NCBI RefSeq assembly: GCF_003334815.1
Contig: NZ_QOWO01000001.1
Length of the DNA: 64,000 nucleotides
Source: Escherichia coli
Lineage (GTDB): Bacteria; Pseudomonadota; Gammaproteobacteria; Enterobacterales; Enterobacteriaceae
Reading direction: 5' to 3' (one strand)
The notes beneath the pieces were generated by a model. It had not been told where the DNA came from. It saw only the letters and a program-made list of their open reading frames with translations, and made no database searches. This document shows, piece by piece, positions 1 through 2,066 of this stretch. The translations under genes and the position numbers were made by a program. Every line of letters begins with the position of its first letter. Position 1 is the stretch's first letter.

Positions 1-232
1 GGGCGGCAAGCTGAAAGCAAAGGTGGAGATCCGCGTCGCTACCGTGTTTCGCAACGCGCCGGAACCGTTTTTGCGCATGATAGTGGTGCACGAGCTGGCG
101 CACCTGAAGGAGAAAGAGCATAACAAAGCGTTTTACCAGTTGTGTTGTCATATGGAACCCCAGTACCACCAGCTTGAGTTCGACACCCGACTGTGGCTAA
201 CGCAGTTGTCGCTTGGGCAGAACAAAATCTGA
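1..232 (+). CDS. ygjP: Metal-dependent hydrolase YgjP, C-terminal part (5' end lies outside the window)
   Basis: Reading frame is open from the window edge; an HExxH zinc-binding motif (VVHELAHL) is present; position immediately upstream of ygjQ matches K-12 gene order. Confidence 0.7.
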   Translation, partial: GGKLKAKVEIRVATVFRNAPEPFLRMIVVHELAHLKEKEHNKAFYQLCCHMEPQYHQLEFDTRLWLTQLSLGQNKI

Positions 233-308
233 AAATGATGTCAGGCGTTATCTTTTCTTTCTTTAGCGCCTAAAATCGACCTCCCCCCTTTCGTTAAGGA
301 TAACGACC

Positions 309-1001
309 ATGCTGCGCGCATTTGCCCGCCTTCTTCTCCGTATTTGTTTTTCTCGCCGGACTCTAAAGATTGCCTGCTTACTGTTACTTGTGGCAGGAGC
401 GACCATCCTTATCGCCGATCGCGTAATGGTCAACGCCAGCAAACAGCTGACCTGGAGCGATGTCAACGCCGTTCCGGCGCGTAACGTGGGTTTATTGCTG
501 GGGGCGAGGCCGGGTAATCGCTACTTTACCCGACGTATTGATACCGCAGCAGCGTTGTACCACGCCGGAAAAGTGAAATGGCTGCTGGTAAGTGGCGATA
601 ACGGACGTAAAAATTACGATGAAGCATCAGGTATGCAGCAGGCTTTGATCGCTAAAGGCGTACCAGCAAAAGTGATCTTCTGCGACTATGCCGGATTCTC
701 AACGCTGGATTCGGTAGTGCGTGCCAAAAAGGTTTTTGGTGAAAACCATATCACCATTATCTCGCAAGAATTTCATAATCAACGCGCCATCTGGCTGGCA
801 AAACAGTACGGCATCGACGCTATCGGTTTTAACGCGCCAGACCTCAATATGAAGCACGGTTTTTATACTCAACTGCGGGAGAAACTCGCTCGTGTCAGCG
901 CCGTGATTGACGCCAAAATCCTCCATCGCCAGCCGAAATATCTCGGGCCTTCGGTCATGATTGGGCCGTTTAGTGAGCATGGCTGTCCGGCGCAGAAATA
1001 A
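309..1001 (+). CDS. ygjQ: DUF218-family protein YgjQ (230 aa)
   Basis: ATG start at 309; N-terminal hydrophobic segment; length and sequence match recalled YgjQ. Confidence 0.8.
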
Positions 1002-1079
1002 TGCGTATCTGCGCACGTCGAAGATGAAAAAGGCGTGCTACATTGACGACAGAATCCCTTTATGGAGTATCCACGCGTT

Positions 1080-2066
1080 ATGATACGTTTCGCTGTGATT
1101 GGTACGAACTGGATCACTCGCCAGTTCGTCGAGGCCGCCCATGAGAGCGGTAAATACAAGTTAACCGCCGTATATTCCCGCAGCCTTGAACAGGCCCAGC
1201 ACTTCGCCAATGATTTTTCTGTCGAGCATCTGTTTACCTCGCTGGAAGCGATGGCGGAAAGCGATGCCATTGACGCGGTGTATATTGCCAGCCCGAATTC
1301 CCTGCATTTTTCCCAGACACAACTTTTCCTTAGCCATAAAATTAATGTGATTTGCGAGAAACCGCTGGCGTCGAATCTGGCGGAAGTGGATGCCGCCATT
1401 GCCTGTGCGCGGGAAAATCAGGTGGTGCTGTTTGAGGCATTTAAAACCGCCTGCCTGCCGAACTTTCATTTGTTGCGCCAGGCGCTGCCGAAAGTCGGCA
1501 AACTGCGGAAAGTCTTTTTCAACTATTGCCAGTATTCCTCGCGGTATCAACGTTACCTGGATGGTGAGAATCCCAACACCTTTAATCCGGCATTCTCTAA
1601 CGGTTCAATTATGGATATCGGTTTTTACTGTCTGGCGTCGGCGGTGGCGTTATTTGGTGAGCCGAAAAGCGTGCAGGCAACCGCCAGTTTGCTGGCAAGC
1701 GGCGTTGACGCCCAGGGCGTGGTGGTGATGGATTACGGTGATTTCAGCGTCACCTTGCAGCACTCAAAAGTCAGTGATTCTGTCCTGGCGAGCGAGATTC
1801 AGGGCGAAGCAGGATCGCTGGTGATTGAAAAACTGTCTGAATGCCAGAAAGTGTGCTTCGTGCCGCGTGGCAGCCAAATGCAGGATCTCACCCAGCCGCA
1901 GCATATTAATACCATGCTCTACGAAGCAGAGCTGTTCGCTACCCTGGTGGATGAGCATCTGGTGGATCATCCAGGGCTGGCGGTCAGTCGCATCACCGCC
2001 AAACTGCTGACCGAGATCCGCCGCCAGACTGGGGTGATTTTTCCGGCAGATAGCGTAAAACTATAA
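1080..2066 (+). CDS. ygjR: Gfo/Idh/MocA-family NAD(P)-dependent oxidoreductase YgjR (328 aa from the ATG at 1080)
   Basis: N-terminal Rossmann-like motif (IRFAVIGTNWI); internal ATG at 1080 gives the recalled 328 aa; the six-frame ORF begins 18 nt earlier at 1062. Confidence 0.8.
   Translation: MIRFAVIGTNWITRQFVEAAHESGKYKLTAVYSRSLEQAQHFANDFSVEHLFTSLEAMAESDAIDAVYIASPNSLHFSQTQLFLSHKINVICEKPLASNLAEVDAAIACARENQVVLFEAFKTACLPNFHLLRQALPKVGKLRKVFFNYCQYSSRYQRYLDGENPNTFNPAFSNGSIMDIGFYCLASAVALFGEPKSVQATASLLASGVDAQGVVVMDYGDFSVTLQHSKVSDSVLASEIQGEAGSLVIEKLSECQKVCFVPRGSQMQDLTQPQHINTMLYEAELFATLVDEHLVDHPGLAVSRITAKLLTEIRRQTGVIFPADSVKL

Follow-up and report, generated by a model that had tools for sequence, protein, structure and literature searches.

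Each of the three proteins encoded in the stretch of Escherichia coli DNA described here belongs to an annotated domain family. The DUF218 proteins ElyC and SanA are genuinely linked to the cell envelope, as an earlier note on this DNA had stated for DUF218 proteins, which have effects on undecaprenyl-linked pathways (PMC3879167, PMC12176290). Like these two proteins, YgjQ is predicted to have a single N-terminal membrane anchor followed by a periplasmic DUF218 domain, a topology already proposed for it in both studies. According to this DUF218 literature, deletion of ygjQ, alone or in a triple mutant with sanA and ydcF, causes no envelope, growth or CPRG phenotype, and its addition to an elyC deletion does not worsen the elyC defect. 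Overproduction of other DUF218 factors does not rescue the elyC mutant (PMC3879167, PMC12176290).

YgjP has given its name to the YgjP-like/DUF45 zincins (PF01863), which belong to the WLM/SprT-like branch, and it shares their HExxHx5H metal site. YgjR has in common with the dihydrodiol/D-xylose dehydrogenase branch, represented by the structure 2O48, a two-domain architecture, an EKP motif and a His/Lys/Asp/Tyr set. The three genes and their domain families are already known and annotated, and in this respect the observation is an ordinary one. The earlier note presented them as a cluster. Our analyses favour, with a probability of about 0.72, that ygjP, ygjQ and ygjR are independently acting core genes of the Enterobacteriaceae that are neighbours by inherited synteny and do not form a pathway cluster.

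Three co-directional core genes

The window is a 64,000-nucleotide stretch of an E. coli contig (NZ_QOWO01000001.1). ORF analysis of its positions 1-2066 identified, on the + strand, the 3' part of ygjP followed by ygjQ and ygjR, all of them catalogued E. coli core genes, with b3085-b3087 as their counterparts in K-12 MG1655. As described in the earlier note, the genes are co-directional and separated by short gaps, of 76 bp between ygjP and ygjQ (233-308) and 78 bp between ygjQ and ygjR (1002-1079). The coding features are as follows.

2-232, + strand: 3' part of ygjP, in frame 2, open from base 2, with its stop codon at 230-232; last 76 of 167 codons
89-121, + strand: metal-binding motif HELAHLKEKEH (HExxHx5H) of YgjP, read from the sequence and found with a regular expression on the full protein
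309-1001, + strand: ygjQ, 230 aa, coding for a DUF218 protein, predicted single-pass inner-membrane protein with a periplasmic domain, SanA paralogue
354-437, + strand: predicted N-terminal membrane anchor of YgjQ, with a model helix at residues 16-43, a hydrophobic core at residues 18-36 and an Arg/Lys-rich N-terminus before the helix
1080-2066, + strand: ygjR, 328 aa, coding for a predicted cytoplasmic Gfo/Idh/MocA NAD(P)-dependent oxidoreductase

The ygjP gene is cut by the edge of the window, its start being located 272 bp upstream of the first position, and the partial translation exactly matches the C-terminal part of WP_001333820. The first in-frame ATG of ygjR is at 1062, but the annotated start is the ATG at 1080, which is preceded by GGAG at 1064-1067. 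An Rfam search of positions 1-4000 gave no match. Gaps of approximately 77 bp between three co-directional genes are commonplace in bacteria and carry no statistical signal per se.

Positions 1-2066 match E. coli chromosomes with 100% identity; this region is present in 5420 of 5426 complete genomes and intact in 5419. In some complete E. coli genomes the ygjQ allele is frameshifted or truncated, which together with the lack of a ygjQ phenotype might suggest that one or more of the ORFs are decaying or non-functional and that the enzymes are relics. This is extremely improbable, given the intactness of the region in nearly all genomes, the invariance or near-invariance of the catalytic and metal-binding residues, and the 80-90% conservation of YgjP and YgjR across genera.

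Gene order across genera

We retrieved the gene contexts via protein matches and exact-sequence look-ups. The genes fadH-rlmG-ygjP-ygjQ-ygjR-alx-sstT are colinear in Salmonella, Kluyvera, Cronobacter and Klebsiella sp.; with Escherichia, five genera keep the ygjP-ygjQ-ygjR order. Because the whole fadH-to-sstT block is colinear in Enterobacteriaceae, the adjacency of the trio says little. In Citrobacter and Enterobacter (E. kobei), ygjQ is absent, and ygjP is directly followed by ygjR after a gap of 75-95 bp. In Superficieibacter, ygjP and ygjQ are 4.3 kb apart, with other genes between them, and there is no ygjR downstream; in the other Enterobacteriaceae genomes examined, ygjP and ygjR stay adjacent. 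We also considered that the Superficieibacter genes around ygjQ might represent a defence system, an idea that was abandoned as the PADLOC and NCBIfam matches were weak. Elsewhere, the Leminorella orthologue of ygjQ has unrelated neighbours, with neither ygjP nor ygjR nearby, and distant ygjR orthologues (45-54% identity, in four contexts) are not accompanied by YgjP-like or DUF218 genes. The 'cluster' of the earlier note does not withstand these comparisons. A literature search for operon names such as ygjPQR yielded no relevant record.

The variable presence of ygjQ might alternatively reflect an ancestral ygjP-ygjR pair into which ygjQ, a duplicated or transferred sanA-like gene, was inserted later at a hotspot spacer, making the trio a historical accident. 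Several observations would agree with such a history: the 75-95 bp spacer of Citrobacter and Enterobacter is clean and already contains the ygjR promoter (see below), Superficieibacter has extra unknown genes around ygjQ at the same site, and the orthologue of Leminorella has a different genomic location. Furthermore, ygjQ has the lowest GC3 value of the region (0.55 vs 0.62-0.73 for its neighbours) and the lowest cross-genus conservation, since in the same genomes identity to the E. coli proteins is 59-74% for YgjQ vs 80-90% for YgjP and 81-87% for YgjR. However, ygjQ is found at an identical site in five genera, a pattern that ancestral presence with repeated loss explains at least equally well, and the sample devoid of ygjQ amounts to two genera. 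We regard a late insertion as unlikely and favour inherited synteny, in which the genes are neighbours as parts of a larger region inherited as one.

Promoters and transcript ends

The features located between and after the genes are listed below.

233-308, + strand: ygjP-ygjQ spacer of 76 bp, with an AAGGA ribosome-binding site at 296-300
1002-1015, no strand: palindrome TGCGTATCTGCGCA, right after the ygjQ stop codon, with its centre ~40 bp upstream of the ygjR start site
1036-1049, + strand: ygjR promoter, with an extended -10 element TGcTACATT (1036-1044) and the published transcription start at ~A1049
2081-2143, + strand: long hairpin 3' of the ygjR stop codon, with an RNA MFE of -27 kcal/mol, z=-3.96, 1 in 200 shuffled sequences being equally stable, and a U-rich tail CUUUGUU

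A sigma-70 promoter of its own has been published for ygjP, whose operon is listed as 'ygjP' alone (PMC3946193). We confirmed the TTGCCC-18-TATACC promoter in the sequence; it is found in the divergent rlmG-ygjP spacer, and transcription of ygjP would start from there. For ygjR, a sigma-S/RNA polymerase ChIP peak was reported, along with a -13C and an already known start site, at 3235304 (PMC4447067). The position ~A1049 given here for this start site was deduced by transferring coordinates from one MG1655 sequence version to another. The TGcTACATT element is conserved in seven genera, two of which lack ygjQ. A scan for consensus sigma-70 promoters, which does not model extended -10 promoters such as that of ygjR, identified no site in either spacer and three sites in all, vs 2.0 expected. 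No promoter of its own was found for ygjQ. The earlier note had named separate promoters, together with unrelated expression patterns, as evidence against a cluster. Such promoters are documented for ygjR (PMC4447067) and ygjP (PMC3946193) and were not found for ygjQ, so that the argument holds by half. On expression, the literature yielded a few dispersed mentions of individual genes.

The AAGGA sequence is the sole part of the ygjP-ygjQ spacer conserved across genera, and no intrinsic terminator was detected in this spacer (fold z=-1.96, no U-tract). Similarly, no terminator-like site was identified on the + strand in either internal gap, and the folds are not significant. A strong hairpin is present only downstream of ygjR, and it is probably a terminator or the 3' end of the ygjR transcript. 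As the 76-bp gap has no terminator, part of the ygjP transcription probably continues into ygjQ and may extend beyond it. Since neither a terminator in the gaps nor a ygjQ promoter was found, a ygjP-ygjQ-ygjR read-through transcript may exist. Transcription of ygjR would be initiated at its own conserved extended -10 element in the ygjQ-ygjR spacer and end at the 2081-2143 hairpin.

These features might also be taken to indicate that ygjPQR form one operon devoted to a shared pathway, for instance the recycling of a nucleotide-sugar or of an undecaprenyl-linked envelope intermediate. YgjP would then cut a pyrophosphate or amide bond, YgjR would oxidise the freed sugar and YgjQ would act on the periplasmic lipid-linked form. 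The shared orientation, the gaps of 76 and 78 bp without terminators, the strong hairpin solely after ygjR and the order kept in Escherichia, Salmonella, Kluyvera, Cronobacter and Klebsiella sp. are compatible with an operon, as are the designation of YgjP orthologues as UTP pyrophosphatases by one source and the effects of DUF218 proteins on undecaprenyl-linked pathways. However, Citrobacter and Enterobacter keep ygjP and ygjR without ygjQ, ygjQ and ygjR are unlinked outside the family (in Leminorella and in the four distant ygjR contexts), and ygjR is provided with a conserved promoter of its own. As synteny extends equally to the flanking genes, the conserved order carries no specific signal. 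In addition, the predicted compartments differ, with YgjQ facing the periplasm and YgjP and YgjR being soluble, and the deletion of ygjQ has no phenotype. We find a common operon and pathway quite improbable.

The palindrome of the ygjQ-ygjR spacer, TGCG-N6-CGCA, is conserved in Salmonella, Citrobacter and Enterobacter. It does not qualify as a rare motif, with five occurrences in the window vs 3.05 expected. It could be a candidate operator or a weak 3' hairpin. It is very unlikely that ygjP and ygjR, with ygjQ where present, constitute a loosely coupled salvage module for a uridine-nucleotide- or undecaprenyl-linked envelope sugar, in which ygjR would also be controlled by a regulator bound to this palindrome.

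In the favoured reading of independently acting genes, guilt by association does not apply, because the presence of ygjQ between ygjP and ygjR varies and because ygjR has its own conserved promoter. That the ygjP-ygjQ-ygjR adjacency is unfit for function prediction is a negative outcome, and a useful one. YgjP, YgjQ and YgjR are each still worth studying as single-gene targets.

Predicted properties of the three proteins

The best Pfam match of YgjP is YgjP-like (PF01863, E=1.1e-10), which covers only model positions 146-200 of 207 (the C-terminal 55); the matches to WLM (E=1.3e-4) and SprT-like are weaker. Relative to the PF01863 family, E. coli YgjP is thus short (167 aa), with the model matched over its end only. 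The HExxH motif mentioned in the earlier note is indeed visible in the sequence, with the codons cac gag ctg gcg cac at 89-103, and HELAHLKEKEH corresponds to residues 121-131 of full YgjP. Across 17 orthologues, residues H121, E122, H125 and H131 do not vary. The maximal 19-residue hydropathy of the full protein (167 aa) is 0.69, indicating that it has no membrane segment and is soluble. We did not retain the PGAP product name 'M48 family', as YgjP has no Peptidase_M48 Pfam match up to E=10 and is without a membrane helix. An NCBIfam search with the 76-residue C-terminal fragment gave no match, a PDB sequence search with YgjP yielded no detectable solved relative, and the predicted structure has a pLDDT of 41 (from an alignment of 17 orthologues with 75-87% identity to YgjP). 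YgjP is most likely a small soluble zincin-type hydrolase. By analogy with its relatives and from the conserved residues, the metal would be bound by H121, H125 and H131, with E122 activating a water molecule.

The earlier statement that no substrate is established for any of the three proteins stands, except that it is slightly out of date for YgjP, some orthologues of which carry the JGI name 'UTP pyrophosphatase'. UniProt and KEGG also use this name, which derives from a weak in vitro activity. A literature search for 'UTP pyrophosphatase' found no paper on YgjP. YgjP may have a weak UTP-to-UMP pyrophosphatase activity, as credited by databases.

The description of YgjQ as a DUF218 protein with an N-terminal membrane anchor is supported by its DUF218 (PF02698) Pfam match (E=4.8e-21) and by a Kyte-Doolittle 19-residue mean of 2.34 for residues 18-36. 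Its AlphaFold model (pLDDT 90.9) harbours a helix at residues 16-43, and its closest fold is that of the DUF218 protein YdcF; a PDB sequence search with YgjQ gave no match. YgjQ shares 40% identity with SanA, and its residues T132, H156 and E191 align with T125, H149 and E182 of SanA, the Thr, His and Glu residues needed for SanA function. The Thr and Glu residues are invariant, and H156 is replaced by Gln in 5 of 28 relatives. YgjQ was rejected as SanA proper (NCBIfam equivalog NF008092), with a score of 162.7 bits against a cut-off of 363, and it is therefore a paralogue. Unlike SanA and ElyC, YgjQ is patchily distributed and fast-evolving. Judging from homology, it would most likely have a SanA/ElyC-like role in the metabolism of lipid-linked envelope precursors, which may be redundant or conditional. 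Among the three membrane-anchored DUF218 paralogues, YgjQ has been studied least, and it is a legitimate single-gene target.

The Gfo/Idh/MocA assignment of YgjR made in the earlier note is borne out by Pfam matches to GFO_IDH_MocA (PF01408, E=6.6e-31) and to a C-terminal domain (PF22725, E=6.4e-11). In the PDB, YgjR matches over its full length an uncharacterised Streptococcus pneumoniae protein (2HO5/4IQ0, E=1.7e-47). Its EKP motif consists of E93-K94-P95, and H76, K94, D179 and Y183 align with H79, K97, D176 and Y180 of the dimeric dihydrodiol dehydrogenase 2O48, the catalytic residues of that enzyme. In contrast with the curated Gfo/Idh/MocA equivalogs, YgjR falls far below all cut-offs, and its nearest solved relative has no known substrate. 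Two NCBIfam equivalogs were discarded in this manner, D-xylose 1-dehydrogenase Gfo6 (81 vs a cut-off of 350 bits) and inositol 2-dehydrogenase IolG (64 vs 355 bits). YgjR was among ten enzymes screened in vitro for 5-hydroxypentanal reduction, the sole YgjR screen that we found, and it was not the most active. YgjR is most likely a sugar/dihydrodiol-type dehydrogenase. It is well conserved, its catalytic set is intact and it has no known substrate, which makes it a legitimate single-gene target. By homology, it would act in the cytoplasm on a sugar-like substrate, with hydride transfer at a secondary alcohol or anomeric carbon mediated by K94, D179, Y183 and H76.

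Gene layout and occurrence in E. coli

An open reading frame analysis identified three coding regions in window 1-2066, all of them on the + strand:

2-232, + strand, 3' part of ygjP (frame 2, open from base 2, stop codon at 230-232)
309-1001, + strand, ygjQ (230 codons)
1080-2066, + strand, ygjR (annotated ATG at 1080; first ATG at 1062)

The genes are separated by spacers of 76 bp (233-308) and 78 bp (1002-1079), which bears out the arrangement of three co-directional genes with short gaps described in the earlier note. Its gene calls stand with small corrections: ygjP is cut by the window edge, so that of its 167 codons only the final 76 lie inside, and ygjR starts at 1080, with a GGAG motif (1064-1067) 12 bp ahead of it. 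All complete E. coli genomes were searched by megablast with nucleotides 1-2400; the stretch was retrieved from 5420 of the 5426, several at 100% identity, and the matching stretches are annotated as ygjP, ygjQ, ygjR and alx. The MG1655 counterparts of the trio are b3085, b3086 and b3087, respectively. The gene calls are thus correct and already known.

We favour the reading that ygjP, ygjQ and ygjR are independent neighbours (probability approximately 0.7). The functional cluster proposed earlier is not supported, because YgjP and YgjR are soluble whereas the YgjQ domain is periplasmic, because ygjQ is dispensable and patchily distributed, and because ygjR has its own promoter. We consider it unlikely that the three genes form a genuine operon serving a shared pathway.

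Features of the three proteins

YgjP matches the Pfam YgjP-like signature (E=1.1e-10), with weaker matches to WLM and SprT-like. The announced HExxH motif is indeed present, as HELAHLKEKEH (window 89-121). This HExxHx5H motif, whose spacing is that of WLM/SprT-type zincins, has its four key residues invariant across 17 orthologues. With a peak 19-residue hydropathy of 0.69, the protein is devoid of a hydrophobic segment. The Pfam search gave no Peptidase_M48 match, and therefore the PGAP label 'M48 family' is only a clan-level name. Some sources call YgjP orthologues 'UTP pyrophosphatase', a name also used in UniProt, on the basis of a slow in-vitro activity; our literature search for this activity found no paper. 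No solved relative was detectable by sequence search, and the AlphaFold model was unusable (pLDDT 41, shallow alignment).

YgjQ was correctly described as a DUF218 protein (E=4.8e-21) with an N-terminal membrane anchor: a basic N-terminus precedes hydrophobic residues 18-36 (mean hydropathy 2.34), which lie within helix 16-43 of the AlphaFold model (pLDDT 90.9). Its identity to E. coli SanA is 40%, and its score with the SanA equivalog, 162.7 bits, lies under the cut-off of 363; it is therefore a paralogue. SanA function requires T125, H149 and E182, a triad also noted in ElyC and YgjQ (PMC12176290); in our alignment these residues correspond to T132, H156 and E191 of YgjQ. Across 28 relatives, T132 and E191 do not vary, and five of the 28 have Gln in place of H156. 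Deletion of ygjQ, alone or with sanA and ydcF, gave no growth, morphology or CPRG phenotype (PMC3879167). Its GC3 of 0.55 is the lowest in the region (0.62-0.73 for the others). Some complete E. coli genomes carry frameshifted ygjQ alleles coding for 180 residues, which lack H156 and E191 (proteins P0053, P0057, P0059 and P0051). They exit the frame at an A5/T5 homopolymer pair (GCCAAAAAGGTTTTTGG, window 716-745, codons ~137-146) and run on in an alternative frame, the ORF at 721-852.

Both Gfo/Idh/MocA domains were found in YgjR, confirming its assignment as an oxidoreductase of this family. The solved protein closest to YgjR, over the full length, is a Streptococcus pneumoniae oxidoreductase that is itself uncharacterised (2HO5/4IQ0, E=1.7e-47). 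H76, K94, D179 and Y183 align onto H79, K97, D176 and Y180 of monkey dimeric dihydrodiol dehydrogenase (2O48), the catalytic residues of the latter enzyme. Against the curated NCBIfam equivalogs, YgjR always falls far short of the cut-off; its best score is with the D-xylose dehydrogenase Gfo6 (81 vs 350 bits). Judged from its sequence, YgjR looks catalytically intact, with no substrate assigned from homology.

Conservation of gene order

We asked whether the association of the three genes exceeds background synteny. Salmonella, Kluyvera, Cronobacter and Klebsiella sp. RIT-PI-d share the order rlmG(-) ygjP ygjQ ygjR alx sstT; as the surroundings are equally kept in these four genera, the trio gives no special signal. 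Citrobacter and Enterobacter kobei lack ygjQ at this site, and only 75-95 bp lie between ygjP and ygjR. A Leminorella grimontii ygjQ orthologue (61% identical) has serine dehydratase, mobAB and nrf genes as neighbours, and four contexts of ygjR orthologues (45-54% identity) harbour no YgjP-like or DUF218 gene. Within the same genomes, identity to the E. coli proteins is 59-74% for YgjQ, 80-90% for YgjP and 81-87% for YgjR.

A 4.3-kb stretch of unknown ORFs lies between ygjP and ygjQ in Superficieibacter electus, and ygjR was not found within 5 kb downstream. Here ygjQ lies amid seven or eight ORFs without an NCBIfam family (locus L008, 761-4974 and 5697-10205), for which the only matches, all weak, are IetA, PDC-S62 and a MoxR/GvpN-like AAA ATPase. 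In this genus, the spacer between ygjP and ygjR may act as a hotspot for insertions. The probability left by independent neighbours and a shared-pathway operon is divided jointly between a variant invoking an insertion history of ygjQ and gene decay.

Farther upstream, a higBA toxin-antitoxin pair lies between fadH and rlmG in a part of the Escherichia genomes (MG1655, L001 at 1497-2224, and L007), and is absent or partial in others (L002, L003 and L005).

Transcription signals

A sigma-S ChIP-seq peak is located at ygjR, whose start site had been mapped at 3235304 in older MG1655 coordinates and whose -10 region carries -13C (PMC4447067). Using the current ygjR coordinate and the offset between MG1655 sequence versions, we place this start at approximately A1049 of the window, 31 nt ahead of the ATG. 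Just upstream is an extended -10, TGcTACATT (1036-1044), which includes the C noted in the sigma-S study. Alignment of the 130 nt ahead of ygjR in seven genera revealed a block, GTGCTACATTG, kept in all seven, the Kluyvera and Citrobacter copies differing by single bases. Since it is also kept in both genera devoid of ygjQ, the promoter belongs to ygjR, independently of the upstream content.

Directly 3' of the ygjQ stop lies a palindrome, TGCGTATCTGCGCA (1002-1015), whose centre is ~40 bp ahead of the start site of ygjR. Salmonella, Citrobacter and Enterobacter retain its TGCG-N6-CGCA form, and the bare pattern is not rare in the window (5 observed vs 3 expected). The palindrome may act as an operator or form a weak 3' hairpin.

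For ygjP, a promoter TTGCCC-18-TATACC in the divergent rlmG-ygjP spacer has been listed, with the operon given as 'ygjP' (PMC3946193), and we found it in the sequence; it was also studied in Reg-Seq. The ygjP-ygjQ spacer is poorly conserved except for an AAGGA ribosome-binding site. Site scans and folding found no promoter or terminator in this spacer, and therefore the ygjP promoter may also serve ygjQ. Separate promoters, which the earlier note named together with unrelated expression patterns as grounds against the cluster, are present for ygjP and ygjR, with none found for ygjQ. The region would best be read as two overlapping units, ygjP, with possible read-through into ygjQ, and ygjR.

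The sole strong structure is a long, near-perfect hairpin right after the ygjR stop (2081-2143, + strand, -27 kcal/mol, z=-3.96), probably a terminator or 3' stabiliser of ygjR; its loop exceeds the length allowed in the terminator scan, which therefore did not report it. The best sigma-70-like match of the region, TTTACA-18-TATAGT (2060-2089, - strand, 10/12), is antisense into the ygjR 3' end. As shuffled sequence contains at least as many sites of this type in total, this match probably arose by chance.

The alx 5' leader (2067-2348, + strand) is the site of the sRNA SraF/Ssr25, placed between ygjR and ygjT (PMC2515195, PMC4782007). It gave no Rfam match, even at E<=1, and contains terminator-like hairpins at 2220-2247 and 2297-2326.
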